From contig NMRA01000468.1 of NCBI GenBank assembly GCA_002633005.1, forward strand, positions 62,001-126,000: a stretch of DNA of 64,000 nucleotides, given 5' to 3'. The notes under the pieces were generated by a model that was given only the letters and a program-made list of their open reading frames with translations, did not search any database and was not told where the DNA came from. A program made the translations under genes and the position numbers. Source of the DNA: Phoronis australis (lineage: Eukaryota; Animalia; Phoronida). Numbering within the stretch: position 1 is the first letter of the stretch; every line of letters starts with the position of its first letter. Shown piece by piece: positions 6,303-54,000 of this stretch.

Positions 6303-6460
6303 AGCCTCCCGTTCAGTAACGCTAGGACCTCGCTAAAAGGCAAGACTTTGCGAGATTACGTGAGATATTGCCGTGCATTTTGAATGAGAACACGTGACTT
6401 TGACTAGCTTTTAGGTAGGTCCTAGCGTAGGTCCTAGCGTCTACTGAACGCACGCCAGGC
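6303..6460. mobile_element. MITE-like interspersed element; inverted copies at ~30008-30135 (partial) and ~33906-34063
   Basis: Terminal inverted repeats cgttcagtaacgctaggac ... gtcctagcgtctactgaacg; three related copies in the window. Confidence 0.75.
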
Positions 6461-29295: not shown

Positions 29296-32200
29296 CTGCA
29301 AGACAAAATCCACGCCTGTTGTTCGACGGGTTTTTGCGTTTCGTATATTACTCTGATGATGTTTCTATTTGCAGAGCGTCTGCATGTCACGTGTCCTTGC
29401 AAATGTCCATCGTGTGGGACCTTATCAGAAAGTCTGGCATTCAGCCAAATATCTATAAAGCTATAGAATTTAACTCCTTTGGAAGCAGAAACTCTGTAGA
29501 ATTCGATTTTCGTTATTATACCAATCTCTAATTTTTTTGGTCACATGCCCATCGGTCTTTCTAAGTAAAATTTAACATAAAAGAGAGGCATGTCCATACG
29601 AACAAAACGCAATCAAGAACCTAGCCAAATTTCCTTTGCTATAATTGCTCAAGAAGTTGCTGTTTTCTAAAATTCCATTTTGCATTATGCAGCTTTCTAT
29701 TTGATTTTTAAGGGAAGTTATGAAAGTTTAATATTTGAAATTCCCTCATGCAGACGTGGAACATTTGAAAAACAATTCCTATCACAGTTCCAGAGAGCAG
29801 TGAACAAAACAGTATTTGAAACTTACACATGATTCTGTTCAGCCCATTTCTGAGCTATAACATTCCGAATTTTGTACATTTTCTAGGGTCCTGCTATAAA
29901 CCTGCCTTCCTTCAAAAAACAACTCTTGACTTTGACCAATTGTCGTTATAAAACTGATCTCAACCTGTTTTAGTCGCTTGCGAATTTGAAGCTTGTTAAG
30001 TGATTGAGGCCAGGCATGTGTTCAGTAACGCTAGGACTTAAACAAAATCTAGTCAAAGTTACGTGTTCTCATTTAAAATACACGGCAATATCTTACGTCA
30101 TCTCCCGAAGTCTTGCTTTTTAGTGAGATCCTAGGCTCGGCAAGATGGCTTGTCACGGCGGTTCGTTTTACAAGCCAAGTATTTTCTCAGCATCGATTCA
30201 AATAGTGACAAATTGTCAGTCCTCTTCACCTGAGTAGGGAACAAGTTGCCCAGTTTTATCTCGGTAAGTGATTTAAATCAAACGTCATAATGTCTTTGAT
30301 GGAAGGTGGATTTGCCGCGGCAGGATTGTCTGACATTCGTGACCTAAAAATTGTAGCGCGCATTTTTATTTCGGAACTAGTGCATATGAAAATAATATAA
30401 ATCATTTCAGGTCTACTGCAGACTGGTCTCGATTTATTGGGAGCGTAGAAATAACGCAGCAGTGATACGTGCCCAAAAACTGAACCACTCCGTTGTCACA
30501 CTTGAACGTGAATCCCTCGCGGTCCGTCCATTGAGCGCCGTCAGGCTTCCTCCAGGAATCTGTTAGGCAGTCGCCGTCATACCGAGACGCTGATCATGAA
30601 ATAAGACCAGAATGCTGTTAATAATACACGAACCGATACCGACAGCAGACGTATTTGTTAGTCAATCTTCACTTATGACAGTGAAGTGAAAATTTATTTT
30701 CTTGAATTTTATTTCAATAACAACCCATATTAATTAATAGAATTCTAGTTTGTTTATTTTCACCTTAATAGGGGATTTTTCATTGACGATCTTTAGAGGA
30801 ATGAGAGCAAGAAACCGACTTCCACTTGATCCTAACTCAGATTTGGTGGACAAATAGAGAAATAAATTCCATTACCAATCCTTCCCAATATTTGGTTAGT
30901 TAAAGTTCACTAGAGTCTAGCTTCTTAACATCAACAAGGATCGAAATTCTTCCGCTTTACCAGTGAGTCGCACTTATGCAACTGCGGCCTCTGCGGTGGT
31001 AACTGCATGGGACATGATGTCCTTCATCTATGGATATTTCAAGAGGTTTGACTTTTCCGCAAACCAGTGAAATTTTGCCGGCATTGTGATAGCAGGAAGC
31101 AGTAGTAAAATTAGGGGTAAGTAGACGCCCAATGCCCACCGTATCACCTTGAACACTGAACGTAACTTACGGTGCGTAGGCGCGTTCAAATGCCAAAATG
31201 TGGTTGGCTATGCCAACGTGCGCCTACGCCACACTGCAGCACTGGCAGGAAGGGTGTTGAAATGCTGTTTTTATCACGAGGTTGAAAGGTGGCACTGAAT
31301 AGTTAGGTTGTGGCCGCGGTCAATTTGCACTCCCAAAATGTTAAAATCTAGGGCTAGGCCAGGCTTGGGGGCATTTTTCAATTAGGTATTGTGTGTAGGC
31401 CAAGTGAATGTTTTTTTGTTGTATTTGTGAACATGCTGGGAATGAAAAAAGGCCAGTTTCTCGGCTGTAGCTGCACTCTTCTTCAAGATGGTGGCCCCCT
31501 GTTGCAGTTGTGCATTGCTGTGTAGCAACTGAGAAATTGGCCGCGATTTCAGGTAGCCCTCAAACAAGCCAGATTTGCAAAAAAACTAGTTGGTTGACAG
31601 TACTTTTGGACCACATTTTTGGAGTCGGTAGGAAATTTGCTTTCGGAATCTAATGTTGGCTTTAGTCGTGCATCGGCAGGAAAGTGGCGATTTTGGGGTG
31701 AAAAGTGCCGATTTTGCATTTTTTTGCCCTCATTTTTCTTAGTTCGGCTTGGTTTCCACTGGGAGTGAATGGGTCAAAAATACAAGAGAGAATAAAGTTT
31801 CTGTGCTCATCTGTAGGGCTTGTGATGTGAAATGACTCAAAACATTTCCTTATTTGCATGCAGTTTTGGACAAAGTGAAGAAAGGGTGAAGAGTGCATTG
31901 ACGTGTGTTCTGACAGGCAAACCCCTGTGAGAACTGTTCTGTGCCCCCAAACCTCCCACGCGTTTGATCTGTAGGTGGCGCTGAACGCGTGACGTGATCT
32001 CCTTCTGAGGGGAAAGTAAATCTCAATATGGCGCGGCTTTTTGAAAGTCAGGAGATGTAAAATAAAATATGTTCCGTTATTTGCATTGTTCCGTGGCAAT
32101 GCCGCTAAATTCATTCTAGCCGTTAAGTAGAGTAGACGCTGGATCAATTTGAGGACAGGAAAGACATCATTATCGACCGTGTAAGCATATAAGCACATGC

Positions 32201-34604
32201 GCCTGTATTTTAGAAATAATGGGCTTTTAAAAAGTTAATTTTAGGCGCATGCGCCTACGCTTCTTGTGGCCGCAGACAGGTGGCTCTTGTGCATGTGGAT
32301 GAAACTGAATGTTTCGTGTGACTTTTCAGACATTTTAAATACTTTTCGATTCATTAATCGTCGCCCTTTGCAAATTCCATTCACCTTTCGTTAAGTTAAC
32401 GATCCCTTGTCGGCCTGCATAACTTATGTTAAGGTCTATTGAATTTACTCCTCGGTTTTACTCAAACGTTTTTGTGTAATTTCTATCAGCTAGGACCCGA
32501 GGTCCTAAGTATTACATTGTCATTGTATTTCTGGTAAACCTTCATGTGTAAAACGAAGTTATGAAAATAACTTTCGTCCAACAAATTCGTACCCCTGGCA
32601 GCAGTTTTTGCTACAAGCTGCGTCAAAAGTGTTCCTCAAAATCATGGGTGTCAAATAACAATTTCAGTATAAGTGTTTCAACATTATGGCCATTTTAGAC
32701 TTGTCACGAGAATGGTTCAAAACGGGCACTGGAGCGAGATTTTGCTAACTGTTTAAGTCGCTGCTTTATTAAAATCTCTTGGAAGCCTGTTCAAACCGCA
32801 TTTAAACAGACATTCCATATGTTTTTACACTCTGCTGCGCGCATTAGAAGGATTCAAGCCAACCAAACACCACTGTTGAATTGGATTCCGCAATCTGCTG
32901 CTTGGGTTTACTTTCTACCGGAAATATTGAACATAAGGTCACTTCCCAAAATTTATTGAAAGAAAACATTAAAAACACAACCATAAATTGTATTCTTAAA
33001 TCATCACTTGAACAGTTCCTGCGCTAACGCATCCTCAACGCGTTTATTTAAAAATTACAAAGTAGGAACACAAATCCCTTGTAGATTAAAAATAGAAAAT
33101 AGACAAAAGAATCGTGTCGATGGGATGGGCGATAGCGATATTCAATCGTGATAAATGGAAGTTGTAAATCAAAAGCAGACCAGCATGCATAAATACACGT
33201 ACGTCGCTTACCAAAATGAGAAAGTGCATGAAATAAATTACGTTCGTGCAGAAACGCACGTCCGTGCCTCCCCAGTTTTGATCCCTCCCTCCTGTATGTT
33301 GTTCGTCCTAATTCCCAATTGAACGTCCGTACTTCCCAGCTTATGATGTACAATTTTTTAATGTTCTTGAGTTTGGGGTGATGAGAACTAAGTTACACGT
33401 AATTTACGCACGGTGTATATACACAAAACGTACCGAGAGTGGCGTTGTTGAAATAATGTCCCACGAGATATTACTCCGCGTGTAATCTGTGGAATAATGT
33501 CGAGTAAGGTTCCCCTGAAGTGCCATCCATTCTGTCCTTTCCCCTCCGCCTCACACTTTAATTCAATGTTGTGCCCCCTCTGTTCCTCCGCTTCCTCCGT
33601 CGATTTGAAACTAATTCCCTCCGTTCCTATCTCCCAACTGTGTCCCCGTATGTTCCCCGTGAATTTTAGTAAAAGGTCTACATTCTCAAGAATTCGCCCC
33701 CTCCCCACACCCCCCCCCGGGCCCCCCTCCCATTTCAGGGCTGGGTGCGCGCATGGTCTCGCCGTTCGCAACCTTCACCCATTCATAGCGTAATCGTGTA
33801 CATGTACAAACACTTGTAAATATCTGGCGTTGTCAAAGCTTATTGAAGTAGGGTAACTTGTTCCAGAGTAACTTGTGCCACTTCTAATCGCTGTGTGGCC
33901 GCAAACCTGGTGTGCGTTCAGCAACGCTAGGACCTACGCTAGGACATACCTAAACTCTAGCTTAAGTCACCTGTTCTCGCTTAAGATACACAGAAATATC
34001 TCACGTAATCTCGCGAAGTCTTGCTTCTTGACGAGGTCCTAGCGTTACTGAACGGGAGGCTGGGGAAGTCGGAATAACTATCTGCTGCCGTTACATACAG
34101 ACGGGTCTTCTTTTGCGCGCCGTATTCGCGTCAGTTGTCCATTGTCTTGCTCAGTGATGCAACTTCCGCGTTACCCTAGTAATCGGATATGCGTATGTGT
34201 GGACGCTCTACTTAAAGTGGTGTACCTATAAGTAGCACTAGTGTGAGTTGTTCCATGTAAGTCTGTTTGTGGACATCTGTTGGGTACAGAAAACAGTTAT
34301 AAATTTCTTAAAATTTACTTGTGGCAGCTAACAGTCGTATTTCGGGGGGCCAGTGGTTTTTGGTACATCGCGTTAATTGTGGTCGGGCACCCTTATGACA
34401 TCCGGCAGCGCTGTAACAGTGCTTTCGACCACCTGCCACCGTTCAAACGTTGGGTTCAAGGTTAACACTTTTTTACTCTTTAATGGACGCAGTGAATGTC
34501 AAAATATTATAACAGGTAAACAAGAATGCACCATTAAGTTTGAATTCTGTCAGAAAGTCGTGATTTGAGGTAATAAAAACGTGGCAACCGTAACAGCAAA
34601 ACGT

Positions 34605-34611
34605 TATAAAA
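34605..34611 (+). promoter_or_regulatory. TATA box of cationic-protein gene copy 1
   Basis: TATAAAA ~30 bp before a CAGT initiator-like site and 78 bp before the ATG; the paralog has TTTAAAA at the equivalent position (~43994). Confidence 0.55.
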
Positions 34612-34682
34612 TGGCCATCGTTGTTTACTTGATGCAGTCGTGTGCTGGCTAACAGAAAGGACGACTTCATTGTTCAAACACG

Positions 34683-36866
34683 ATGAAACTGGTGAGGCAT
34701 TTCGAGGGTTGGTCGCGTAGTATGCAGTCTTCTGCAGCTGCTGTCTGAAGATAAGTTCGGTTGGGTATAATTTAGCAGAAACCCGGCGAAGCGACAAGAA
34801 ATCTCAGTTGTCTGTGCTGATTGGCCGTAGTAGACTTCTAGTCCAGAGTTGTTCTTTTCTTTTGTAAAACAAACTTGAAAATACTTTTTTTATGGATGCA
34901 GATATTTTCGCAGGGCGCACTCTAAAACGTGCGTATGTGGATTTGAAACCACAATCTCTCTAGGTCTATAAATAACGCCGCTAATATTGACGGTGCCCCA
35001 CCTGAAATTAAATTAGCTGATAAAAATATTAATCAATAAATAAAGATTGTAAATTCTAAAACGAGATTCTGTTTAAGGGCCGTTTGGCGTTATTGTTTTT
35101 GCGGGATTGATGCTAACTGAACTGTCTTCCAAGATTGCTTTTCTAGTAGACTCTCGTGGATTTCTACAGGAAAACTGTTGAAGAGCCCATCTATAAACTC
35201 TTTCGCTTTATTGATAATGTCATTCAAATATTATTTTGTAGGTGTTCATATGCGCGCTACTCGTCTGTTTCATCGGGCTGCTCCGAGCTGAAACTGAAGG
35301 AGTGTACGAAGTAAAAGAGGACGATGTTGAAGTAAACGATCGTTCGCTGGAAGAAAGTGTTGATGAAAATGAAGATGGTGACAACGAATCTGAAATCATG
35401 GCTCGCTCGCTAGAGGACGCTGACGAAGAAGACGATGAGTCGGAGATAGCTGTTCGTTCCGAAAGCGACGCAGACGACGAAGACCAGCAAGCAGACGACA
35501 GCCAAGGTGATGATAAAGAGACGGTCCTTGTTGAGCGAGGGAGGAGGAGAAGGAGGAGGAGGAAATTAAAGCGATGCAGCAAGAGAAGATCTGTCACCCT
35601 TTTTGTTAGATTCAGAGGACGCCTCTACAGGCTCCATAGACCAATTTTGGGAACAATTTGCCTTCAACCTGGGTAAGTAAATTGCTGCAATATGCCTTTT
35701 TCCCGCAAACATCTCTAATGCCAGAGATCATTTGGCGATTCTACGACGCATGCGTGATGCAGGCCTAATAGCCCAGACTGTACTCCTACTCTGAATCAAC
35801 ACTCACGCGGAAAAGTGTCTAATAACACAATTGACCACTTTATGACATGAACTCGCATTCATGTTGTCGCCATCTTTAAGCTTTATTATGGCAAAGTTTG
35901 TCGTAATTAACTACCTTACAGTTTTCAAAAAACACGAGGAAATGGAAAAATAAACCTGTAAAAACCCGCCTTAATAACCAAAAGGTTGTGAGACGGTATC
36001 CAGAGAGCTTAGCGCCTAAGGGATCAGTGACCGGTTGCTTGAAACAGTTCAACTAGGGGACTCGGGTATATTCTCGAACGTTTCAGGCCGTTTGCGTACT
36101 TAGTGCATTTACTGATGGTTTTCTCTTCTGCTATTTTTCTTCATTGCTGCTTTAGTACGTTTTAGGTTTGATACACGCCGATAGTAATTTATATGTATAG
36201 GGACCTTTTCACTGATGCAACACCTCTTAAAGGGGTGTGTTCGAAAATTAGTTTCATTGAATTTTAAGCTATATTTTTAGAAAATGTCATGAACTAAAAG
36301 GGAATTCACAATAAAAATAATGTAATAGGAAATGAAACATTGACGGGTAAACAAAGTCTATAAAGGCACTGAAAGTTCAGGGACCTTAGTTTCATGCAAT
36401 CGACCACTGGTGCTTAAGTGTGAAGCATGAATTTAAAACTAAAGCAGTTGATCAGTGGCGTGATAAAACCTACAAAGATGTCTGGACACAGGTTTGTTAG
36501 ATTACTTCAGTCAAACATGGCGGTGAGTGTTCAGGGGGTGTAAACCGTGGCAAAAACGCATTTTCTGTGGTTATACTATCGATAAAATCTTAGATTATAC
36601 ACTGATGTTGTGCAGTTAACAACGATAATATATTGACGCCATAATGTCACCGTTACCGGTTACCGTTGCGTGAAATTTCTTGTTGATTCGCAATTACATT
36701 AATTGTTGCATTGGTGTGAATCCCAGCTTCGTTTATTTGTAGCGCAAGATGCAGAAGATTCTTGTTTTTCCGAGGCACATGTCGCCAGAGCTATCTTCGC
36801 TTCCGTGTCCGCATTCGCAAGTTCTGGATCATCCTTCGCATTCCGCTTTGCCTCTGCCGACGCTAA
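34683..36866 (+). CDS. Secreted prepro-protein copy 1, 187 aa: signal peptide, acidic propeptide, Arg-rich six-Cys (cystine-knot-like) domain; exons 34683-34691, 35242-35672, 36743-36866
   Basis: ATGAAACTG|gtgagg, tttgtag|, GG|gtaagt and tttgtag| give MKLVFICALLVCFIGLLRA-ETEG...VER-GRRRRRRRKLKRCSKRRSVTLFVRFRGRLYRLHRPILGTICLQPGARCRRFLFFRGTCRQSYLRFRVRIRKFWIILRIPLCLCRR*; all splice sites and phases are conserved in copy 2; AATAAA at 37073. Confidence 0.88.
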
Positions 36867-38695
36867 AGAACTCGTAGGCGACCGCTCTGGTACACTGAAT
36901 ACGTATTACCAAGAGAGAAGCTATTTTCACAATGCAATTTGCGACAGTTATTTCAACTTACCACATAGATATTACAACACGTGTTGTCATATTCGATTCT
37001 TTGTCTTTGTTCTTAATTTTCGTCTAAAGTTTTTATTTTGACGTCTGACAGAGAATGACACGTCCAAGTTATAATAAACTCAGTTTTCATTGTACAATCT
37101 CAGTCTTTTCAATGGCGCAGACACGGGGTGTCCAGGGAGTCATTCAGCCATTTTTCTGTTGCTATAATCGAACGATTTAGAATACTCCTTATGCCTGTCC
37201 ATTGTCAGACTCTGCCTTGTCGTTATTTCGGGTCTGTCTCGGTCTGTTTCAATGTATTTGATTATTTAAAAAGAAACTTACAAAACGCAATTACACAAGA
37301 CGGTCATAGTTGTCGAAAGTTCTTGATTTCAAGCCAAAAACATTCGCATTCATCACAAAGCACGCGTTTGCATTGCTGATTAATATAATTGTCTACACTT
37401 TGGCTACAAAACATTAAACTTATCAAATTACATATTTCAATTTCTGAAACCATGTGTATTTTAAAACTTCGATTTTCGGAGCGTATTGTGTGTGCAAAAA
37501 TAATTCCCAGGTGCCCATATGAACAAAGGTAGTAATCCTGGTCGTAGCTAAGACGAAGTTTTCTTGGCAAACAATTCGTTAACATGGTTGGTGAAGACAG
37601 GTTTTCATCTTGAATATCCGCTACGGTTGAGCTAAAGTCAGCAGTAATACTTTTCTTTCACAAAAAATGCAGCGTCGCTTTTATAAAACGTGACGTCACC
37701 ACGATAGTCTTGTCTACATTCCGGCTAGCGACCTTGATAAAATGGCCACCAGGTGTTCGTTATAACAATCATGAATCTTTCATCAAAGACGTTCTTCCAA
37801 GGAAGACGAAGAATACCTGTTGGGTATAATTTCCGTGCATACGTTTATGAAATTACTCCATGATTCTAAAACAGCTGTGTGGTTTCATTGAGTAATAATT
37901 AGAATTTAAAAACACTTTAAGAAGTGCAACAAAGCTAGCACTGACTATAGCTCTGATTTAGACTACAAACACAAAGACGCCACAGCGTTAGCATTGTTTG
38001 GCTCTGGTATATGATTAGCGGGAATCTTGAGGTGGAGCGGAACTGGGCACATGTAAAAAATCAACGTTGATTGTTCTTTTGACAATCCAAGCTTCCTTAT
38101 GTGATCGGGACTATCAGCAAATTCAAAATGAGACATTTACATGTTTATTCAGAAGTACAATGACTATCCAGTCGGGGTATGTACCCGCGCAGTACGTTTG
38201 TAATTGTCTCAGTCGTGTCTACCCAGCCAGTTTTTTGTTCTGCCTCTTGTGTGTTTCCTTTTGCCTCTGAGGAAAAATAGTTGTAAACTTACCTGCTAAA
38301 ACTTGAACCAATAAAATCAATGCACAAACCTGTAAAAATAAAAAAAATCATTTCTGTTGAAAATGTTAAATTTTGGCGGCCATTCAGGATCTTTATCTAT
38401 TTTTGTACTGCTGAGCTAAAGAAGTGGGGATCGTGTGCAGTCTTCTCCGCAAACGCCGATGAACTCGCCAAAGCGTTAGTATGGCTTGTCGATTTTAGAC
38501 TCACTGGGTGGACTGCATAGTGGATTTCTCATATAGCAGTTTTGTAACGTAACAAATATAGCGAACGCTTTTTTAGCTTTGCAATGTTTTCACTTGTAGG
38601 TATAGCCTACAAATGGTCCGATGTTCATTTGTTGTGCAAATAAACAATGACGTTGCGTCTGTTACTTTCTTAACACAAGTATTCTTCGTAATCCG

Positions 38696-38934
38696 GGGTC
38701 TGTTTTATGAAAAGTCACTTACGACTCGAGACAGGCGATCTTAAGCTCCAAAGTAATTTTGAGCGCAGTGAAAAAAAAATATTTTACGGAAATTACAACA
38801 GTAGGCAGAAGTTACGTCTTTATTCTCAGAAACTTGCATTTTTGGTCAAATGATAATTATTTTTTTGAAATACTTGTGTAGAACTTAAAAGGTCGCACTG
38901 ACCTCTTAAAAGTCACTGTTGATGAAACAGGCCC
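38696..38934. mobile_element. MITE with GGG(T/C)CTGTTT termini, present only in duplication unit 1
   Basis: gggtctgttttatgaaaagt ... actgttgatgaaacaggccc; flanks CCG/CTG. Confidence 0.65.
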
Positions 38935-41658
38935 CTGGCTACACTTAATATCATTTGGTAGGCTAAAAAGATGTTAAGACTACGACAAGTTCACTACAAT
39001 CTGCAAACATTTTGTAAAACTCCGGTTTCGCATTCTCCGGCACAACACTGACCTGCAGCGGAGTAAACGTGCAGAATTGAAATTTCCTTTTTTACTTTAG
39101 CATCGATTTTTAAATTTCTTCCATTATGATGCTATTTGCTACTTGCTCGAATTCGCCATTATACTTGAAAACTACTATGGTTCTGCACCTTTTGTACACG
39201 CGCGCTTTCACGTTTGTGTTGTTGAAATGAATTCTAAAACCGGGGTAATTGTATCCTAAACAACAATGCGCAACATTTAATTTTGAAGCCTCACCAAAGT
39301 GTGCAAGTAATAAATTACTCGTCCAGACAGGGCACTAGATTGTACAGATTTCATCCGTAGCTATTGTATTTTGACAAACTATTCTCCTTGTCCAAATTTC
39401 AATAAAAATATACTTACTGCAACAGCTCGAATCATTTTTGCAACTGAAGGACAACTAGTGCCATACAAAGCTGTCAACAGACTATTTATAATAAGGACAA
39501 CGTTGTTGCTGTAATGATTTAATTTCACAAAATAGCATTTAGACAGGCTTTAATAGACAATTGCGTCCCGGATTAGATTAGATTTTTGTTTGGTTTGTTC
39601 AAAACACAGAACTATGTAAATAGTCGTTTCTGAAGATAATCGGTTCTACATTGTACGCCTGTGTTGTAATGTGACTGCAGGCTACGGTTATTACTGAGAA
39701 CAGACTTGAGCAGAAACCATTTCTTGTGCATGCCTGTCGTGATGTTGTTTGTCTGTAGGCGAACTTGCAAAATTCACAGTGAGCGTTCTGCAATTTCAAT
39801 TTATCTCATAAGACAGGCTTAATTAAAAGTTGTTTAAATAGAGCAACTTCACGTGGAATTGTGCATTGCGAGTGCGCATCTGTATTCCACTTTCGTAAAC
39901 GCGCCCTGATGGGAACGCGTTATTGGGCCAAAGGTAAGCTTTTGTGAATTCGAAAAAGCAGGAAGCCTACTTTAAAAATTTAGATTTTATAAAGACCTCT
40001 TCAATGATTTAAGTGACTTTATAATTCATTTAACAACAAGATTTAGGAATAATGTGTTTTAAAGTTTTCTTCAGTACAAAATTACGTAAACATGAATGAC
40101 GTTTTTGATTTTGACTTGGTATTGTGCCAACCGTCCACTCCCAGAGACGGTATTCGTCTTTGCTACTCGTCAATAGATGTCGTTTATGTCACACAAATCG
40201 TGTCGCTGACGCTGGCCGAGGAAATTTGTTGGTCTGCAAATTTAAGAACGCGAGGTTGGTAAATGGTGTGAGGACGGTATTCTATTGTAACGGTATTGTT
40301 CATTTTCATATGTTGATGATGAGTAAATAAACGTGACCGTCTCGTGTGACTCGATTTTAGTCCACCTGTCTAGACTTAGCCACCAAAATCGGACTGCAAG
40401 CCACAACAAGTCCGCTTTCCATAACAGACCACTTAACGTTATGAAATTGGTCACAAATTATGAGTTAGTCAAAATATCTGAATCAGCGCTCGACTTTTAA
40501 CGAGCTTTTTTCAGAGCTGCGCCGCCCATGGTGTAAAAGTTCGTCGACCAAAAAGGTCGATTCGAATCGCCATAGCGCCACCCTTGTAAATGCCTGAGTG
40601 TGGAGCCACTAGGTTCAGGATCAGGCCTGCCAATCGTGCATCCGCGCCGAATTCCTGTGCAGTTTGTGGACTTTTGTCTTGTTTACTTCACTTTTTGTTT
40701 CACTGAGGCGGATCATTTTTGAGAGGGGAATAGGGCCGATATTCGGCTCCAAAATCGACGGATTGAGGGCCCTGTCCTTTTTGGAAAGAAAAATGAATCG
40801 TGTTTCAACTCATAGTCATGAAAACATAGCCTGGCTGCGATCGAAGATTCTTCGGTCGTAATTGCTATGATGCTCGGCAACCGAGATGCGACAATTATAA
40901 TATGATCTAACTTTTCGAAAATATTTATAAATTTTACACGGCCATATTTTCCATCGTCGCGGCATATGACAACGACCCAACGCTTCCGATTCTGAACCTC
41001 CTTAGGGATTGTAAAACAAGACAGTTGAGAGTGCGTATTTTTTCAGCCGTTCAAGCAAAGCGGAAAACGCTGTGCCGATAAGCCAACAGAGCTATCGTAG
41101 CGAGCCTCGTTTTGGAACGCGCCTCCTGACGGCGTGAATTAGGTCTATACAAGCTGTATCAAGAGTTCTCCACAAAATCTTTGTCAACTAGGGAGTTTTA
41201 GAAAAGGAATATCCATGTCAACAATTTTTTGAAACGGATTATCAGTCCATGTCAACAGGATAGCTGTTTTTAGAGTTGCCATGAGAAAGGTTCAAAACAT
41301 CCACCCAATGGAGCAAGATTTTGCTAACTATATGTTGCAGCTACGGAGGCCCAAAGAGGACATCGCGCGTTTCTTTTTTAATAATTTCGGGATTTCGAGC
41401 TCTAATAGTCCTTGCAGGTACATCAAATCCGCATTTAAACAGGCCTTTCAACTGTTTTTACCTCTGTTGCGTGCATTTTGGAGGTTCAAACAAGCTAAAC
41501 ATTGTTGAATTGGATTCCGCAATATGCTGTTTGGGTTAATTTTCTACTGGAAAGAACACAAAACCACTTCTACATTCTTCTCAAAAGTTACTGAAAAAGA
41601 ATTAAGATTCTGTTCACAGCACTAGAAGGCGCGACCAACATCCAAGCTAGTATTAGTA

Positions 41659-41765
41659 GAGGCAGTGTGGCCTAGTGGGCTGCATGTTCGCCTCCTGTTT
41701 TCATTGTCGTGGATTCAAATCTGCTAGACCCTTGAGTCAAACCTCTGTACCCTCAACTCGGTCTG
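41659..41765 (+). mobile_element. Decayed tRNA-derived SINE head
   Basis: A-box-like gtggcctagtgg and B-box-like ggattcaaatc; no intact cloverleaf. Confidence 0.45.
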
Positions 41766-43099
41766 AATTTGTGTTGATGTGTGTAATATGTAATTAGTAA
41801 TAAACGAAAAATGGTTTCAGGTGCTTGGTGCAATTTGGGCCTGGCTGAGCGGACTGTGTACGTCTGATGAAACGTGTAACAGGTCACCTGTACTATGCTT
41901 TGTTCAAGAAAGTGTTGGTAGTGTAAATACAAGAACATTGTCTTACTGGGTGACAAAACAAGAGTAGCTTCACTCATTAGTTGTCAATTGAGAATGGAAT
42001 CTTATATATAGCAGTGTTCCCCCAGTATGAAGCTCCTGCGTTCCGTAGGCAAAAACTTGCGACTCATTTGCAACGAGAAATGACTTCGCCGATGGAACGA
42101 TGACAGTGATGTGAGATTATCATTACAACCTAACCGACCGATCACTTCAGTGGTCGCCACTTTGCTAAAGTGCGCTAGTAAGGTCCCAGGCATACTCGCG
42201 AAACACTCACGGGATTTTACGTAAATATATAATATAAAAATAGATGTTGAAATGTCGTGCTGTTGCCTATGGTTAAAAAGAGTAAAATAGTATACAGTAA
42301 AACGACGACCGTCGGTACTAAAATGTATTAAAATATTTCCCACGTTTCGAGCAGTACGCTCTTTATCGAGGGAATGACACAAGTAATTTTATGTAGTCTT
42401 GCCTGATCTCAATTTTCACGAGTTTCTCGCGTCACGACCCTTTCAGTGAAACAAGCCGGCAAACGGGTGTTTTCCATTACGGTATAATATATATTTCCAT
42501 GATTGTGGTCGCAATATATCTACCTTCCTTCGCGTACAGGCCGTGCCGTTCATCGGGTTAAAAGAAGAAAACACGAACATAAATAATCGTGAATGAGTAC
42601 TTAAATAGTTCTCACGGTAACGCATTCTTGCCGTATTCATTTAAAAAGAAATTCATGTCCCCTGTGTGTTAAAAATACAAAACAGACAAAAGAAAAATTT
42701 AATCGTGTCCATGCATGGGCGATAACATCATAACAGAGTGATTGATGGGAATCGTAAACCAAAGACAGATGAGCATTGTGAATGCTTTTATCAAGAGTGT
42801 CGCTTAGCCAAATGGGAAAGTACATGAAATAAAGTACGCCCGTGCTTCCCCTGTTTCAGATCTATCCTTCCCGTGTGATGAAGCAGGCTTCACACCCGTC
42901 CGTCATTCCTATTTTTCAGTTCGTCACATTGGAACTTCCGTGCTTCCCGTCTTATGATGTAGAATGTTGTAATTTTTGTGAGTTTGGGGTGACGAGAACT
43001 TAAGTACGCGCAATTTTGGCACGTAATTTGAACTTTGAAAATCTCGGTATACAGTTTTTAAAAGCATATAATAAATGATCTGCGAGCAAGCATTCCATA

Positions 43100-43545
43100 C
43101 GTATTTTTCACCGTTGGCCAATAATACAGAATCAGCTCAAGGTGTGTTCGGGCTTGTGTGGGTGAATCATTTGCTTAGCAGCCAAACGACTACTGTACAT
43201 ACCAAATGTGTCAGTGTTGGTACTGATGGTAAAGAAGCTGCTGATTACCTTGCAAAGCAAGAAACAAGTACACCCTGTTTTTCACCAGAACCCTGCACAC
43301 CAGTCTCATATAAGTATTGCAGGCCAAAGGTAAAACAGTGGGACAGGCGTATAAATTGTCAGCGGATGCAAGGAGACAAACTAAATTTATTTTTCTTTTC
43401 CAAGTCCTGTTGAGCCAAAGGGTTCCAAAATACTCTTAAGCTTAGGCTGGCTAGTCGACATGTGATCCAAGTAATTATGGGCACTGGAACTTAGCTCATC
43501 AACGAAAAATCACACAGCATGTGACCTGTTCAAACTGCATTATGT
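43100..43545 (+). mobile_element. Remnant of an RNase H-bearing non-LTR retrotransposon (I/Loa-group-like), only in duplication unit 2
   Basis: LVWV..H...VGTDGKEAADYLAKQ...SPEP resembles the RNase H C-terminus WVPGH.GI.GNE.AD.LAK...GPEP. Confidence 0.65.
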
Positions 43546-44058
43546 TTGTCCACCTCGCCGTTCCCGGCTAACTTTCACCCATCGCGTAATCATTTATAAT
43601 CAACACTTATAAGTATGCGACGTTTTCATAAACATTGGCACACCTGTCCCGTACAGAAAGCATTCTTTAATTTTCTCAAAAAATACCTAGTGCAGCCATA
43701 AGTCGCATTTCAGGGGGCAATCCGTTTTTGGTACATCGCTCAAATTGTGGTCGGGCACCCTTATGACATCCGGTAGCGCTGTTACATTGCATTCTACCGT
43801 CTGCCGCTCGACGTGACTGTAACGTCACAGTACCAAAAAGTTGGGTTCAATGTTAACACTACTAGTCCATGGTTCAATGACTGCAGTGACGGTCAACACA
43901 TTTTAACTGGTAAACAATAGGTAAACGTTTGAATTTTGTGGGAAAATCGTGATTTGCGGTAGTAAAAACACGGCAACCGTAACGGCACAACCCTTTAAAA
44001 TGGTCGCCGTCGTTTACCAGACAGTCATACACTAACAGAAAGGCGTACTTTACTGAGC

Positions 44059-46754
44059 ATGATGAAACTGGTGAGGCATTTTTCGGGTTGGTCAAACAGT
44101 CTTGTGCAGCGGCTCCCAAAACTAAACTGCACCTGCGTAATATTTCGAAGAAACCGCACTTGCATACTATTTCGAAGAAACTGAAGCTACAAAAAATCAT
44201 AGCGGTGTGTGTTGATTGTCCGTAAGAGGGCACTTGTTTAGATTGTTTTTTGTCAGGTAATCGTGAAAATACTTGCTTTCGACTAAGCAAATTGTGTGGA
44301 TAGTTATTTTGCACTGTAAACTCTTAGATGTGCATATGAGGATTTGGTGTCAATGATTAGTGATAGTTACAGTATTGAGGGTGCATCCTCTAAAGTTTAG
44401 TGGTAAATTTAATAAATAAATAAATTCTTGTATATTTTAAAACTAAAATATGTTAAAGAGACATTACCATTTTTCGACCGCGTCTTGGGATTGTTGCTGA
44501 ATATGACAGAACTTTTGAAGTTATTAGCTTTGACCACAGCTATAAAACAACAACATTCGAAATCAAGGCAGGTGACTTTAGGAATTATATTCGCTGTGTC
44601 ATTTATCGAGTGGGATTTAGAGCCTCCTGCGCAGACGGTTAGGTTAGTTCCCAGTCCAGTGGCCGATTTAGAGGGGGACGGGAGCCATGGCCCCTTCTAA
44701 AATTCTCCCAGATTCCATTTGGAAGTTTGGGTGTGCAAATGTTTGACGGACAAAATCTGGCTGATACCCTGCCCTGCCCCCCCCCCTCCTCTATCTCAAA
44801 ATCCTGGATCCGCCTCTGCAATTATTCTTGTCACACTGAAGTCATAAATTCCAAATGTCACGAACAGGCAGATGTAACTCGACTGACTTTAGTCTACGCC
44901 ACCTCAAGACTATTAAACAGCTGCGAACGACGAGTCGCTAATGTATCCCTAAAACTATATGACCTCGGGTAGTCTAGTACCCTCCAAAATATTTCCGCAA
45001 GGGGAGCCTTTAATATTAAGTTGACCTAAAGTGATGGCTTGACGAGGATATACTTTCATGAGTCACTAAAATAATCTTCCAAGATTGGTTTTTCTCGTGG
45101 ACTCTTCGTGAATTTCATAGAAAAGCTGTTGAAGAGCCATCTATAAACTTTTTTGCTTATTTTTATTGTCAGACAAATATTATTTTGTAGGTGTTCACAT
45201 GCGCGCTGCTCGTCTGTTTCGTCGGGCTGCTCCGAGCTGAAACGGAAGGAGTGTACGAAGTAAACGAGGACGATGTTGAAGTAAACGATCGTTCTTTGGA
45301 CGAAGGTGTTGATGAAAATGAAGATGGTGATAACATCGCTCGCTCACTAGAGGATGCTGACGAAGAAGACGATGGATCTGAGATGGCCGTTCGTTCCGAA
45401 AGCGAGGCAGACGACAAAGATGGTGAAGTAGATGATAAAGAGACGGTCCTTACTGAGCGGCGGGGGAAGAGTAAGAAATGTAGAACGAGAAGATCCGTCA
45501 CCGTTTTTGTTAGATTCAGAGGACGTCTGTACAGGCTCAAGAGACCAATTGTGGGAACAGTTTGTCTCCAACGTGGGTGAGTAAATTCTTGCTATAGGCC
45601 TATTTACAAACATCTCGAATAAGAAGCAGTTCACTTGGGTGTGCTATGCGTGCTGCATGCCTAATAGCCCAGACTGTGCTCTCACTCGGAATCACCACTT
45701 ACGCGGAAAAGTGTCTATTACCACAATTTACCATTTTATGACATGTACTCGCATGCGTGTTGTCACCATCGTTAAGCCTTTTTGTGGCAGTGCTCGTCGT
45801 ATTTATTTAACTGACAGTTTTAAAAAAATACGAGGAAATGAAAGATAAACCTTTTAAAACTTGCCTTGAAAAGCAAACAAAGGTTGTGAGACGGTGTCCA
45901 GAGGGCCCGGGGTAGCGCTTAAGGGATCTGTGGCCGGTTGCATGAATTATTTCAATTCTAGGGGACTCAGTTACGTTTCAGGGGAATTGCGGACTTTGTG
46001 CATACACGGATTGTTCTCTCTTCTGCTATTTTCCTTCATTGCAACTCAGTTAAGGTTTAGCTTTGATAGACACCGATAGTAAATTGTATGGTATAGGGAC
46101 CTTTTCACTGATGCAACGCCTCTGTTTTACTTTCATTGAATTTTCAGCTATATTTTTAGAAAATGTTATGAAGTAAAAGGGAATTCATAACAAAAGTAAA
46201 ATGATAGGAAATGTAACGTTGACGAGCTAACAAAATCTACAAAGGCTCTGAAAATTTAGGGACCATAGTTTCATGCAATCGGCCACTGGTACTTGAGTGT
46301 GATAAAACCTACAAATATGTCTGGACACAGGCCTACTAGATTACCTCAAGCAGGCGTGACTACATCACGTGTAGTGGCGGATCCGGTGAGTGTTCAGGGG
46401 ATGTAAGCACCTCTGAATAGCCATCTCCTCTTCAAAAACGCACTTTCTATCGTTATACTGTCGATAAAATCTTAGATTCTACACTGATTTGCTGGAATGA
46501 ACAACGATAACATATTGACGCAATGATGTCGCAGTTATCATTTTAGGTTACCGTTGCGTGAAATTTTCCTATTAATTTGCACTTATATGAATAGTTACAT
46601 TGGTGTAATTCTAGCTTCATGTACTTGCAGAGCAAGATGCAGAAGATTCTGGTTTTTCCGAGGCAGATGTCGCCAACGCTATCTTCGCTTCCATGTCCGC
46701 ATTCGCAACTTCAGGGTCGGCCTGCACATCCCGCTTTGCCTCTGCCGACGCTAA
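44059..46754 (+). CDS. Secreted prepro-protein copy 2, 172-173 aa, same architecture; exons 44059(or 44062)-44070, 45191-45576, 46631-46754
   Basis: (M)MKL|VFTCALLVCFVGLLRA-ETEG...TERRGKSKKCRTRRSVTVFVRFRGRLYRLKRPIVGTVCLQRG|ARCRRFWFFRGRCRQRYLRFHVRIRNFRVGLHIPLCLCRR*; donors gtgagg and gtgagt; AATAAA at 46952. Confidence 0.88.
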
Positions 46755-49099
46755 AGAACTGGAAAGCGACCGCGCTGTTCGACACCGAATACGTATTATC
46801 AAGAGTGAAATTATCTTCACAGTGCAGTTTGCTACAGTTGTTTCAACAGATCTTACAACACATGTAGCCATATTCGAATCTTTGTCTTTGTTTTCATTTC
46901 ATCTAAAAATTATATCTTGACGTATGACAGAGAATGACACGTCCACATTATAATAAATGCAGTTTTCATTGTGCAATGTCATTCCTTTCACTGGCGCAGA
47001 TGCGGGGAGTCCGGGGAGTCTCTCAGCCATTTTTGTATTACTATAATCGAACGATTTAGAATACGGTACCCCTTATGTCTGTCCATTGTCAAGACTCCGT
47101 CTGGTCGTTATCTTGGGTCTGCCTCGGTCTCTTTCAATGTATTTGGGTATTTAAAAAGATACTTAGAAAACTCACTTACACAAGACGATCATACTGGTTA
47201 TCGAAAGTTCTTGATTTCCAGCCAAAAACATTCGCATTCATCACAAAGCACGCGCTTGCCTTGCTGATTAGTATAACTGTCTACACCTTGGTTACAGAAC
47301 ATTTGATTTATCCAAGTACTTACTTCAATTCATTAAACTATATGTTTTTAAAAACTTTGGTTTTCGGGTCGTATTATGTGCCCAGAAATAATTCCCAGGT
47401 GTCCATATTAACAAAGGTAGCAATGTTGGTCGTAGCTAAGACAAAGTTTTCTTGGCAAACAATTCATTAAAGTGCTTGAATATCTAAGCCTACTACAGTT
47501 ACGTTTACGTCAGCAGCGATGCTTTTCTTTCACAAAAAAATGTTTGTTGCCTTTATAAAACGTGACGTCACTACGAACGTCTTGTCTACATTCGGGCTAG
47601 CGAACTTAATAAAATGGCCGCCAGGTGTTTGTCATGGCATGAATCCTTCATCAAAGATGTTCTTCCAAGGAAATTGTCCTTGCTTCAATCCACAGATGTG
47701 ACAAATTGAAAAAACGTAGTCGTTACCTGACCACGAATATTTGTAGGGTATAATTTCTATGAAATTACTCTATGGTTCTAAAACAGCTGTGTGGTTTCAT
47801 TGGTTAAAAATTAAGAATTCAAAAACACTCTAAGAAGTGCAATGAAGCTAGACAATTAAACAATACCCCGTAGGAAGCGGGGGGCACGCCCCCACCCCAC
47901 AAAAAAAATTCAGGCGTGAGGGTTAAACCGTGGCAACCGACATAGGCGTGGGGCCCGGGACAGGGTCCTAAACAACAATGCGCAACATTCATTTTTGCAG
48001 CCCCACCAAAGTGTGCGAGTAGTAAATTACTCGGAGATTCCAGACAGGGAACTAAGGTTGTACAGATTTCATCCGTTGCGATTGTTTTTTGACAAACCAT
48101 TCTCCTTGCCCAACTTCCAATAAAAATATACTTACTGCAACAGCTCGAATCATTTTTGCAACTGATCGAAGGACAACTAGTGCCCTGCAAACTCAACACA
48201 CTATTTATAGGAGTGACAACGATGTTGCTGCAATGGTTTAATTTCACAAAATATCATTTAGTAGACAAGGATTTTTGTAAGTTTTTTTTAAACACAGAAC
48301 TATGTAAATAGTCGTTTCTGAAGATAATCGGGTCTACATTATATGTCTGTGTTGTAATGTGACTGCAGGACTACAGTCATCACAGATAATAAGCTTGAGC
48401 TGACACCATCTCTTGTGCGTGCCTGTCGTGAAATGGTTTGTCTGTTGGCGAACTTGCAAAATCGACAGTGAGTGTTCTGCAGTTTCGACTGACTTATCTC
48501 ATAAAACAGGCTTAATTAAAAGTTGTTTAAATAGAGCAGCTTCACGTGGCAATGCGGGGGCGCATCTGTATTCCACTTTCGTATACGCGCCCTGATGGGA
48601 ACGCGTTATTGGGCCAAGTAAGCCTTTGTGAATTTGAAAAAGGGGAAGCTTACTTTAAAAAATTAGATTCTTAAAAGACCTCTTCAATAATTTAAGTGAC
48701 TTTTAAATTCAGTTAAGAACAACATTTAGGAATGATGTGTTATAAAGTTTTCTTCAGTGCAAAATTACGCAATCATGAATTACGTTTTTGATTTTGACTT
48801 GGTAGTCTTGTAAAACCTTCCACTTCCCAGAGACGGTATTCGTCTTTGCTACTCGTCAATAGATGTCGTTCATCACACAAAAGGTGTCGCTGACAGACAA
48901 TTTCTAGAATTTACGCTAGCCGAGGCGCACGTGAAATTTGTTGGTCTGCAAATTTAAGAACGCGAGGTTGGTAAAAGGTGTGAGGACGGTATTCTATTGT
49001 AACGGTATTGTTCATTTTCAGAGGATGATGATGAGTTGATCTCCATGACCGTCTCGTGTGTCTCGATTTGAGTCCACTTGCGTATCTGTCGTATAGTCC

Positions 49100-49208
49100 G
49101 ATTACCTCTCGTCGTCAGTCTCCAAAGGTCGTCCGCCATCTTGTTTCGCGTGCAGCGCAACCACGCGGGACTTAGCGTTCCAATTTGGAGTGCTCGTCTG
49201 CACGTTAG
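49100..49208 (+). promoter_or_regulatory. Candidate TSS region and non-coding first exon of FKBP4
   Basis: CpG-rich patch with a TCAGT initiator-like site, a CCGCCATCTT (YY1-type) motif and the donor ag|gtacta; the ATG exon at 51087 begins with an acceptor, so an upstream exon is required. Confidence 0.45.
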
Positions 49209-51093
49209 GTACTAACCTCTCGGGAGAAACACGCGTGGAAGAACTGAGACTAAAATTAATGCNCACCACAGGGGGATGGGGGGGGCTAATGTCCTCCCCC
49301 CCCACTTTTTTCAGTGCTGCGCCGCCCATGCCCGTGGTGTAAAAGTTCGTCGACCAAAAAGATCGATCCGAATTGCCATAGCGCCACCCGCGTAAATGCC
49401 TAAGCGTGGTGACAAATGCATTATTTCACAAAGTCAGTCTGAACAATTGTGAATCGAAGATAATAAATCTAGGAAAAGTGATAATTTAAAGTTTGTAAGT
49501 TAACACAAACTTTAAAACGAAGGAATTATTGTCTGACTTTCATGGTAACTTCTTGGCGATAAAGGTCGCCAAACACAATTTGATGTCGTAAGCACACATA
49601 ATATTCGACTGACTATTGGGCGTGATTTATGGTCTCAGAAATAACTGACCACACCATGTCACCATGGTCATAGACTGTCTAGCTACAAAGTTACTAACTT
49701 GTGTGCTCATCATGGTCTTTTGGAATAATGAACTGCCAGTTCTTTGCAAGACCAAAAGTTACTTCTCATCAGAGTGTGGAACACGTTGAGACTTTTTGGT
49801 GTTTTTTGATGTTTTACAGTAACATTGTGCAATTTTAACTAAAGTGATTATACGCAATCACTGAATCTGACGTGTTACTGAGTACGACAATTTCAGTTCT
49901 TGCCAAGTCGAACTCACACATGATTTTCAATACAATTATGAACTTTCAAATGCACGATTATTTTCATTGTAGAAATTTTCATTTGTAGGCCTATACTAAC
50001 ACCATTCTAATTTTTACTTCCTGCACTAGCGGTTCAGTATATGAAATTGCGCACGTCTTGTAGTACAGGCTGCTTGTGTCTGAGACTCTAAACAAATTTA
50101 GTGTATGCAATGAGGATGTTCATTCAGCAAAAATCAAAAGGATGACGTTGGTTCTGTGGTGATTAGTGTTGAGTGTGGGTACTGCTGCTACTGATGAGGA
50201 ACCCACAAGTGAGATGAAACCCTCGACAAACCGTACTCTATCGGTGACTAGGTCTTGATGGTAGCTTTAACCTTCATGCTTCTGATTAGCTTTTCCTTGA
50301 ATTATGTGTATTGTAGTGACCACCTATTAGTAGTAGTCTTAGCATGACCTTCATCTTTGTCACCACAGAACAGTCTTAGGTCTGCCATATGGGTTATTGT
50401 ATCTGCCATGTGGGTTATTGTTTCTGAAGGCATTCGAACTGACGTATATATCAACATAATTTTGTATGTCTGAATTTGTTCAAATTGTTGGGAGCATTAT
50501 TATGGTTGCCTGCTTTCTTGCCAAATCTCTATGGGTTTAGATCAGGTGATGACCTTACAAAACTGTGATCAGTCTGACTTAGGCTTTGGTAAGTTGTAAT
50601 TCTTATTAATACGTGAATTTATTATCTATGTGAGACCACTGGGTGGCATTGACAGCGCTGAAGCCTTATCCAACTGGTATTTCTAATTTTTGTGTTATGA
50701 TTTACGACTGATTCATGAAGTTGCAACAAAAACTTTTGTGGGATCTCCTTGTGGTATTGCTCATCTGCCTAGATAATTATTGCGTTTTTGATTAAAAATG
50801 AGCGAATCAGCAACAAGAAATAGTTGACAACTCAGAGGGGTTGGTGGAAGTGGTCGCAACTTACTGTATGGACATAGTCCAGTGTCAAGCACTGTTTGAC
50901 TGCCTTGTGCAATGCAAGAGTTTTTGCCTTCAGTTTGAAATATTTTTGAAAATTATGTTACATAGTTTGTTGCGCACCACAGTGGAAAGGCGCCTATGCC
51001 TTCTAGAAGGGAACTTAACTCATGTGGTCTATATCATAAGACGTCCTCTGAAGGCTTGTGCAGTATGGCAGATTTTTGCTCCATAGGTACACT

Positions 51094-54000
51094 ATGTGTG
51101 ACCCTGTTGACCAATCGTTGGAGGACAATAAGCCTGCGGTGACCTCTGTTGACGTCACTCCTACACAAGATGGCGGTGTGCTGAAGGAAATCCAAAGGGA
51201 GGGAGAAGGAACAGAATGTCCAGGAGTTGGTGACAAAGTCTCCGTGCATTACGTGGGAACTCTGTTGGATGGCTCAAGGTTTGACTCCAGTCGAGACCGG
51301 GGACAAAAGTTTGAATTTGATTTGGGAAAAGGTGAGAATGTGTACAATTCGGCTGGGTGTGTCGGCTGTTTTGTCAGCGGTCAGTAATCCATAACGCAAA
51401 AATGTATCATAAACATCTTAAATGTCAATTGTCATATAGTGTTTGATTTTAATTTATTTCTGTTTCTGTTGACAAAGGACGTTATTATATCCGAAAATTT
51501 CAGTTGATCCATTCTTGTTTTGTTTACCTATTTATATTCTCTATTTCTAAACTTAGTCTGCTGAGACCACAGACACGACATCTGATATGAAAACTATTTC
51601 GAAAGCTTTCATTGAGACATTTCATTATTTTTTACACCCAAACAAGATCAAGGCTTGTCGAAAGCTACATCACTCTTTAGCTGACTTCTGTGAAAGGTGT
51701 TATTTATTTCCAGGCAGTGTGATCAAAGCATGGGACCTGGGTGTTGCTACGATGAGAAAGGGCGAAGTGGCTAAACTGACATGTCGTGCAGACTACGCAT
51801 ATGGCGAGAGAGGAAGCCCTCCCAAGATTCCTGCGAATGCTACACTGGTGTTTGAAGTAGAGCTGTTCAGTTGGAAAAGTGGTAATTGGTTATGGACTCG
51901 TATTTGAAATTGGGATAAATTGAGAATGAGGCATGCGATGTTTACCGACTACAAGACTTGATATCAAGTTAAGCAAAAAAGCACACTCGTTCACAGTGCT
52001 AGTTGTTACATGGTGGCGTCACACTAGTTCACAGTGCTAGTGGTTACATGGTGGTGTCACACTAGTTCACAGTGCTAGTGGTTACATGGTGGCGTCACAC
52101 TAGTTCACAGTGCTAGTGGTTACATGGTGGCGTCACACTCGTTCACAGTGCTAGTGGTTACATGGTGGCGTCACACTAGTTCACAGTGCTAGTGGTTACA
52201 TGGTGGCTTCACACTCGTTCACAGTGCTAGTGGTTACATGGTGGCTTCACACTAGTTCACAGTGCTAGTGGTTACATGGTGACGTCTCTAAAACTGGAGC
52301 TACAATCCTCTTAACCTCAGTTCCGCGCTAGCAAACAACTATTTTGCTGTACAAATTCCATCCTGGCACCCCAAAGTCCCAATCGCTCACCAAATGCACT
52401 CAATATCGGGAGACCAAACTCCAGCATTGGTCCAGATAAGGAATCGTGTTACCATGCATGTAGATGGGTTACCAGGTATGGATTATTTCCGGCGTGTGCT
52501 TGTGTGTAGTTTAGGGGGGCAAGCCTGACATTTGTGAGCGGGTTTGGTTTTTCGTTTTCCTGGACTATGGTTTAGGAGGATTGAAGCTGGAATTTACAGT
52601 CACGGACATAGAATGGTTTCCAGCCCCTCATCTTGAGTCAGTGTAAGTTATTGTTGACACTGGCTTCAAGCTATGAGTTTTGGTCACATTTTCATTATTA
52701 TTTGCGCCATGAAGAGATTGTCATTTAGACTGTTATGGGCATTTTTTTAAATTTGTGACATAGATTTGAATTCAAATACAGCAGCTGCAATTTCATGAGG
52801 TGGCTCAAAATGGGAACATGATATGTTGTCGTGTGTACCATGTTCTGAAGGCATGATGAGAACACTGTTGTTCATACTTTTTGGCAAAACATTTTAGAAA
52901 GAAATTTTCAGACATCAGCATGTTTCACTGCTGCTACTTTAGCGCTGTCCTGTCAGACTTTCGTAAATGTTCTCCCTTCAATATCCATTTAGGGGAAGAC
53001 ATTTCACCGCAAAAAGATGAAAGTATTGTACGGCATGTGTTGAAGCAGGGAGATGGATGGAAAACACCAAACGACGGAGCGTCAGTTAAAGGTACGTGAT
53101 CATTTCCATCATGCGAGACTGTGACAACTTGCCTTGCATTATGGGTCTTCCGAATGTGAATAGCAGGGAGTGTGAAAGAATTTGCTACTCATTTTTGGTT
53201 AATATGTCGACACTTTGAATCGTTGTTTCATACGTGTGGGACCGTTGGGAAATGTTTAAAGGTGTCAAAAGGGCATGTGACCATTTTTGCTTTTACTTTA
53301 AAGTAAAAATAGGTCTCTGGTTATCTTGGAGAGACATTCATCCGTGTTTATTACTGTACACCCAGCGTGTATTTACTGTCCATGGGACGCCCTAGCAAAA
53401 TGTCCCGTGTATTGGGTTTGCATTCACTGCAATTGAACAAACATGTTAATCCTATTCGCCTATGCAGGTTATTCATGTCTGCTCAGTGAAAACGAATGCA
53501 GAACCAAGATGGGGACACTTTGCTGGGGTCTTTATGTCACTTTCAGTTGTTCCATATATAGTACGTTTGTACCAAATGAAAACAGCAATTAAACAGATGT
53601 CTCATGGAGATAAACCTGTGATCTGCATTTTTGCTAAGGGTAACATCAAAAACGGCTCCTTTCCCCTTTAAAAGTGAGACAGTATCTACCTTCGGTGCCC
53701 CAAGAACCTGTACCTCCATGACGATATGTGTTGGAATAGCTCAGCTGGAAAAACATAATGTCTGTCAACTCCACCTGGCCTGGACGTACTACGATTTTTG
53801 AAAATTAGTGGGCTAAAAATTCTCCAATTTTGAACAGTCACTAATGATTTCTCAAATATCAGACACTATTTTGTATTAGCAGAGTTTGAAAATAGACTAG
53901 TTAGTGCACAGCATTGTCAACACACACCAACGGAACATTTTCATTCAGACCCCTGTGCCTAAATATGTGCAGTATCACTGAGCCGTGAATGTCTATAATT

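Follow-up and report, generated by a model that had tools for sequence, protein, structure and literature searches.

A tandem gene pair in Phoronis australis predicted to encode secreted precursors with a charge-balanced acidic pro-region and a cystine-knot-like cationic domain

Two genes for predicted secreted proteins lie in tandem in the phoronid Phoronis australis, in a 64,000-nucleotide (nt) stretch of contig NMRA01000468.1 (NCBI GenBank assembly GCA_002633005.1, forward-strand positions 62,001 to 126,000; here called the window). We found that these are two real and apparently undescribed gene copies, as judged from the DNA itself, with a predicted three-exon structure (Table 1) and a striking charge design.

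An initial annotation of the locus had proposed a 9-nt first coding exon (MKL) and a phase-2 splice concealed in an apparent stop codon, and both copies agree with it. All of the introns (4/4) are GT-AG, in phases 0 then 2, and the second-intron donors are GG/GTAAGT in copy 1 and GG/GTGAGT in copy 2 (slash, exon end). A separate first coding exon is required because an in-frame stop lies immediately 5' of exon 2 in both copies; this type of gene escapes annotation based on open reading frames (ORFs). In both copies exon 3 is open in each of its three forward frames, one of which reads as Ala/Ser-rich and continues beyond the stop; the frame used here was set by the splice phase and by the cysteines and stop common to both copies. 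The six cysteines (Cys I to Cys VI) are spaced 27/6/9/22/1 (C-x27-C-x6-C-x9-C-x22-C-x-C) in both copies on recounting, exactly as first described. The search patterns for the exon-3 cysteines were drawn up only after the sequence had been inspected; the loose one (a C..C..CxC exon) picked out 2 stops among 10,482 acceptor-frames in the window, both of them in these third exons, whereas shuffled sequence gave loose matches at 0.2 per strand, and the strict pattern was never matched in 30 shuffles.

Table 1. Features of the gene pair and of the duplication that carries it (window coordinates; aa, amino acids)
Feature	Position	Strand	Description
First tandem-duplication unit	32791..40603	.	Matching blocks, 65-87% identical, broken by unshared insertions
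TATA-like box, copy 1	34605..34611	+	TATAAAA, 78 nt before ATG; consensus match alone
Predicted spliced ORF, copy 1	34683-34691 + 35242-35672 + 36743-36866		564 nt; 187 aa + TAA
Coding exon 1, copy 1	34683..34691	+	Met-Lys-Leu; phase-0 donor; copy 2 identical in these 9 nt and in the donor
Exon 2 start, copy 1	35242..35289	+	Remainder of predicted signal peptide, residues 4-19 (hydropathy, AlphaFold helix; cleavage point inferred)
Acidic pro-region, copy 1	35290..35535	+	Residues 20-101, net -33, predicted disordered
Exon 2 end, copy 1	35536..35672	+	Polybasic linker with R-x-K/R-R sites, Cys I (115), finger 1 (central Arg-Gly), Cys II (143), phase-2 donor
Exon 3, copy 1	36743..36866	+	Cys III-VI (150, 160, 183, 185), finger-2 hairpin, stop
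AATAAA polyadenylation-type signal, copy 1	37073..37078	+	Sole AATAAA in 530 nt scanned
Second tandem-duplication unit	41423..49409	.	Matching blocks
TATA-like counterpart, copy 2	43994		TTTAAAA
Predicted spliced ORF, copy 2	44062-44070 + 45191-45576 + 46631-46754		519 nt; 172 aa + TAA
Coding exon 1, copy 2	44062..44070	+	Met-Lys-Leu
Exon 2, copy 2	45191..45576	+	Signal peptide, pro-region (45239-45457, net -28), basic linker, Cys I (100), finger 1, Cys II (128)
Exon 3, copy 2	46631..46754	+	Cys III-VI (135, 145, 168, 170), finger 2, stop
AATAAA, copy 2	46952..46957	+	Place matches copy 1 signal

We found that the charges of the two parts of each precursor nearly cancel. Residues 1-19 resemble a signal peptide, a call made from hydropathy (3.43 over 12 residues in copy 1) and an AlphaFold helix over the first 19 exon-2 residues; cleavage after residue 19 was assumed for the charge sums. 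The pro-region, 82 aa long in copy 1 and 73 aa in copy 2, is of low complexity, is predicted to be disordered (AlphaFold) and is built of acidic 17-21 aa units, each ending in Arg|Ser. Its net charge of -33 faces +32 in the 86-aa tail of copy 1, and -28 faces +28 in the 80-aa tail of copy 2, so that the secreted precursors have net charges of -1 and 0, respectively. The balance is held despite both lengths changing; with n = 2 this conservation is suggestive and is not a statistical test. The prepro layout of signal peptide, acidic pro-region and cationic Cys-rich tail, and masking of the cationic part by the anionic one, had both been proposed from the start. The layout is present in both copies (signal peptide by hydropathy), and the near-zero net charges strengthen the case for masking. 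Short anionic pro-pieces neutralise the cationic mature peptides of sea-urchin centrocins and strongylocins (PMC10608444), and the same has been suggested for cecropins and alpha-defensins (PMC6780910). The defining features of such precursors, namely a signal peptide (by hydropathy), an acidic pro-region, a basic processing site and a cationic amphipathic part, are all found in the pair.

The last 85 residues of copy 1 contain 31 Lys or Arg and no Asp or Glu, a claimed count that held when repeated, and the last 80 of copy 2 contain 28 and none. The mature domain has 21-23 basic residues (net +21/+23), no acidic residue and a hydrophobic fraction of 0.47-0.49, and its alternating strands are long. 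Strand 164-172 alternates between Arg and hydrophobic residues, an Arg-Gly pair stands midway between Cys I and Cys II (finger 1) in both copies, and beta-type hydrophobic moments are 2.5-3.1 at both fingers. Fingers 1 and 2 do not align with each other, and no internal duplication was seen. Basic sites also occur inside the domain, Arg-Arg|Ser just past Cys I and R-x-R-R just past Cys III, in both copies.

We found that the precursor is under purifying selection overall, judging by codon changes between the copies. The genes are carried on a tandem duplication with units of ~8 kb, and no third copy was found within the window. The two proteins are 81% identical, with synonymous divergence (dS) of 0.25, nonsynonymous divergence (dN) of 0.11 and dN/dS of 0.42 (Fisher p 0.002). 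Between the copies, exon 2 has three indels (12, 15 and 18 nt) and every one (3/3) preserves the reading frame, whereas 8/33 of the gaps in the flanks and intron 2 are multiples of three. Of the nine changes in exon 3, five cluster within residues 173-179, in finger 2's second strand. Variation concentrated in this way is frequent in defence peptides.

No relative was found in Pfam, the PDB, protein sets of 5.8 billion and 1.84 billion, the ESM Atlas or three DNA collections, in searches that each took one exon (33-144 residues) with low power. This agrees with the initial view that the pair belongs to no described family. A word search with exon 2 left 0/157 candidates at an expect (E) value of 0.001, the ESM Atlas gave no usable match for exon-2 residues 100-144 or for exon 3, and the exon searches gave 0/78 in viral contigs. 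The few candidates were rejected: the single match of an exon-3 profile to the 1.84 billion representatives was a tandem-repeat ORF scored from six summed stretches; the best PDB sequences, at E 0.08-0.3, were taken as chance; and one of 51 in prokaryote genomes and one of 81 in metagenomes were short shifted-frame matches in apparently ordinary bacterial genes. No such family was found in the full-text literature covered, which leaves out subscription journals. A multi-exon gene of FKBP4/FKBP52 type, with two FKBP domains and TPR repeats by Pfam, lies at 51095-57490 (+). The best matches of two of its exons were 59-63% identical, with one arthropod match at 48%. Since this neighbour finds distant relatives only, the lineage seems poorly represented in protein collections, and the negative searches therefore weigh less.

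We suggest that the mature domain probably forms a growth-factor-type cystine knot, in which a Cys I-IV bond would thread the ring closed by II-V and III-VI. The superfamily of cystine-knot growth factors is defined by six knot cysteines (PMC4079206), and each copy has six knot-type cysteines, ending in C-x-C, in a predicted secreted protein. In an AlphaFold model of exon 3 (mean predicted local distance difference test, pLDDT, 66), residues 13-24 and 27-38 form a two-strand hairpin (pLDDT 67-79 there) that has Cys IV facing Cys VI. A hairpin register running from Cys IV to Cys VI is that of finger 2 in growth-factor knots. Foldseek matches were weak, and 15 of the 47 rows listed were cystine-knot growth factors (TGF-beta, neurotrophin, glycoprotein hormone and VEGF), one of which we take to be such a protein. 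A Foldseek comparison had been proposed at the outset; it returned NGF, NT-3 and BDNF/NT-4 in weak rows and no Spaetzle chain among the matches listed. Of the Spaetzle/neurotrophin-type knot in the initial annotation, a growth-factor-type knot is plausible from the exon-3 hairpin and the growth-factor rows; the link to Spaetzle in particular is weaker than proposed, given the missing Spaetzle-diagnostic residues (below). The two exon-encoded halves folded as two chains scored 0.00, which is no evidence either way, and a viral fold library gave no match at E 0.001.

Our preferred reading, to which we give a probability of about 40%, is that of an antimicrobial effector: a neurotrophin/Spaetzle-type knot pared down to a pair of amphipathic Arg-rich hairpins, kept charge-neutral in storage until convertases set it free. 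The tandem-duplicated genes would be spliced into precursors that enter secretion through the predicted signal peptide. The disordered acidic pro-region would shield the host cell and keep a hydrophobic domain of +21 to +32 soluble, and the domain, tied by a knot (I-IV, II-V, III-VI) whose ring counts 11 residues, would carry a pair of long amphipathic fingers. Convertases could then cut at the polybasic linker, freeing a flat two-finger domain whose Arg-lined and hydrophobic faces might bind anionic lipids or lipopolysaccharide and permeabilise microbial membranes as arenicin-type hairpins do. Such a killing or effector function is suggested by composition and by analogy with Arg-rich disulfide-closed hairpins, which permeabilise membranes (PMC4410394, PMC6780910). 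With 21-23 basic residues and none acidic, the domain suits a membrane role better than that of a receptor-specific ligand. A stronger version, in which a growth-factor knot, trimmed to 71 residues, came to act directly as an antimicrobial with two arenicin-like hairpins and an exactly charge-cancelling pro-region, forming a lineage-specific effector class, is doubtful as a whole.

Several observations weigh against the masked antimicrobial knot. The AlphaFold models were made of exon 2 and exon 3 singly, not of the joined domain, and in the exon-2 model finger 1 is a low-confidence helix with no hairpin (pLDDT ~50). The Foldseek rows were all weak (E 2.5-8.4, template modelling score 0.2-0.55, no control hairpin), 13 of the 47 were influenza polymerase, and there was no match at E 0.001. 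Pfam profiles gave no family for either half, with little power at 33-40 aa. Leu stands on either side of Cys V in each copy, whereas hydrophilic residues flank it by the superfamily rule (PMC4812194). Spaetzle and neurotrophins share a conserved Gln (PMC2772990, PMC2586362), placed from numbering in finger 1 (Gln44; DNT1 539), and neither copy has a Gln between Cys I and Cys II. If used, the internal dibasic sites would nick the knot. Exon 3 by itself has a ratio of nonsynonymous to synonymous change (pN/pS) of 1.03 on 13 changes, without codon-position bias, and for the mature region dN/dS is 0.49, which does not differ significantly from 1 on the low side (p 0.06). Upstream NF-kB-like sites number 0 and 1 for the two copies versus 26 in the window, which is no excess.

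Our results might also indicate a structural or adhesive protein, although we consider this unlikely. A zero-charge precursor would form a coacervate in storage; once cleaved, the amphipathic beta domain would build up on polyanions (mucus, cuticle, cement, mineral matrix or egg coat), serving in a matrix or on the gamete surface. The precursor net charges, the hydrophobic fraction with its long alternating strands and the lack of family expansion past two copies in the window suit such a role, and coagulogen uses a related knot for a clotting gel (PMC2586362). However, the domain is single, compact and non-repetitive, a cleavable pro-region is typical of peptide effectors, and tracts rich in His, Gly, Tyr or Ser are absent. 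Many adhesives carry tracts of these kinds.

Quite improbable is an antimicrobial precursor without a knot, in which two disulfide-closed beta-hairpins (Cys I-II and Cys IV-VI, with III-V) are perhaps separated at the internal dibasic sites. Each of the two cysteine pairs is predicted to close a symmetric hairpin, the sites are there in both copies, and finger 1 weakly matches a defensin-5 chain (E 0.08, not significant). However, such cleavage would leave odd-cysteine fragments, W-x-x-L-x-I-P of copy 1 maps to positions 130-136 of the neurotrophin/Spaetzle superfamily, and C-x6-C-x9-C-x-Q-x-Y with P-x-C-x-C agrees with the familiar neurotrophin/Spaetzle order.

We give similarly little weight to a divergent neurotrophin/Spaetzle-type ligand for Toll, Trk or p75 whose basic surface would serve just to hold it on heparan sulfate. 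Spz2, Spz5 and neurotrophins are laid out in this way, with a signal peptide, a disordered pro-domain, a furin-type site and a knot at the C-terminus (PMC9427763, PMC2772990), and highly divergent neurotrophin forms are expected (PMC4812194). Against this stand 80-86 aa without an acidic residue, a knot span of 71 aa versus ~102 aa in DNT1 (PMC2586362), the absence of the family motifs, and the failure to find a relative, when the Platynereis neurotrophin is 37-40% identical to human ones (PMC4812194). Finally, a wrong gene model (exon 3 joined otherwise) or a decaying pair of young, unselected copies is highly improbable: the exon-3 pN/pS, its three open frames and a coding identity of 87-89%, barely above the 76-85% of aligned non-coding sequence, would allow it, but both frames are intact at dS 0.25, the coding indels are in frame, the overall dN/dS has p 0.002, and six cysteines, four splice junctions, stop and AATAAA are common to both copies.

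The window is intron-rich animal sequence of ~40% GC, with an assembly gap at ~10080-10415 (339 N in the window). A minisatellite of ~38-nt units (51982-52286) lies inside an intron of the FKBP4 gene, whose C-terminal tail presumably resembles mollusc and annelid orthologues. Exon-like pieces at 9448-9708 and 18009-18368 (+) are, we assume by eye, of PLAC8/cornifelin type (no Pfam match), and ORF pieces at 14817-15176 and 17302-17655 (-) are presumably a degenerate marine-invertebrate integrase-type transposon protein (no Pfam support). Blocks 1-2001 and 18387-20095 are diverged duplicates of each other, and 2511-4595 is a tandem pair of ~1,040-nt units, 94% identical. Two dispersed repeat families (6301-6459, 30028-30134 and 33906-34063; 24697-25124 and 40721-41150) are 78-86% identical, one of them on both strands.

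If both the knot and the killing are real, a receptor-signalling cytokine fold would itself have become the weapon, and a poorly sampled animal would offer salt-tolerant antimicrobials a scaffold that is new, disulfide-locked and Arg-rich. The charge match in two diverged copies makes masking by the pro-piece directly testable.

We compared the domain with the diagnostic sites of Spaetzle (Spz; Pro13, aromatic Phe/Tyr at 133, Pro136) and of neurotrophins (Trp130, Ile/Val133) (PMC2772990), placing the sites by alignment numbering with the last Pro taken as 136 and no gap. Pro136 is present (Pro181 in copy 1, Pro166 in copy 2, two residues before Cys V), Pro13 is not (the first Pro is 22 residues past Cys I), and position 133 is Leu in both copies. 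In both, the Pro is presumably one residue nearer Cys V than in Spz. Position 130 is Trp in copy 1 and Arg in copy 2, and neither copy matches the neurotrophin consensus [GSRE]-C-[KRL]-G-[LIVT]-[DE]-x3-[YW]-x-S-x-C (PMC2772990). Spaetzle proper was rejected for want of Pro13, aromatic 133 and the finger-1 Gln, and a canonical neurotrophin for want of the consensus and for its longer knot span. Because two of the Spaetzle sites, the shared Gln and the neurotrophin consensus are missing and the knot is short, we file the pair under neither. Its appearance is that of a distant and reduced relative within the neurotrophin/Spaetzle superfamily, and its own C-terminal strand, on these residues, looks at least as invertebrate-neurotrophin-like as Spaetzle-like.

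Like Spaetzle proteins (Spz1-8, including DNT1/Spz2 and DNT2/Spz5), the pair is predicted to have a signal peptide, an unstructured pro-domain and cleavage before a six-Cys C-terminal domain (PMC9427763). It also shares the multi-exon precursor and the Pro before Cys V with a hydrophobic residue ahead of it (135-136). Spz2-type members carry C-x6-C and C-x-Q-x-Y. Unlike Spaetzle, the pair lacks, besides the residues named, a further Cys next to Cys V that could link a covalent dimer, and its knot is ~30 aa shorter, carries net +21/+23 with no acidic residue and has no Pfam match. Spaetzle has been reported almost exclusively from arthropods, with one clam alone described outside them (PMC7773633). 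Like neurotrophins (sea-urchin NT2, acorn-worm NT, protostome NT), the pair has the knot cysteines as its only six, an aliphatic 133, hydrophobic 135 and Pro136 as in the NT2 type, Trp130 in copy 1, and the weak NGF, NT-3 and BDNF/NT-4 rows. It differs from them in the absent Cys III-IV motif (x9 instead of x11), Arg130 in copy 2, extreme charge and a core of 71 aa versus ~120 aa in Platynereis (PMC4812194). Coagulogen/coagulin, to which PDB searches gave no sequence match, is alike in that a Spz-like knot serves outside receptor signalling, in a clotting gel (PMC2586362). The pair matches the alternating Arg/hydrophobic strands and Arg-Gly turn of arenicin, tachyplesin and protegrin. Coagulogen has more disulfides and a different precursor layout.

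By eye, finger 1, with an Arg-Gly turn between alternating hydrophobic/Arg strands, is closest to arenicin-1 (PMC6780910, Table 4). Beta-hairpin peptides, however, are single hairpins of 16-21 aa, whereas the pair has two predicted hairpins in 73-86 aa, and arenicin precursors carry a BRICHOS domain (PMC6780910) in place of the low-complexity pro-region of 73-82 aa, in which Pfam matched no BRICHOS. A cationic mature part behind an acidic pro-region is shared with strongylocins, centrocins and alpha-defensins, although pro-pieces of that class are 15-30 aa long (PMC10608444). The fold is likely a known one and its use likely new, in a prepro layout that is familiar.

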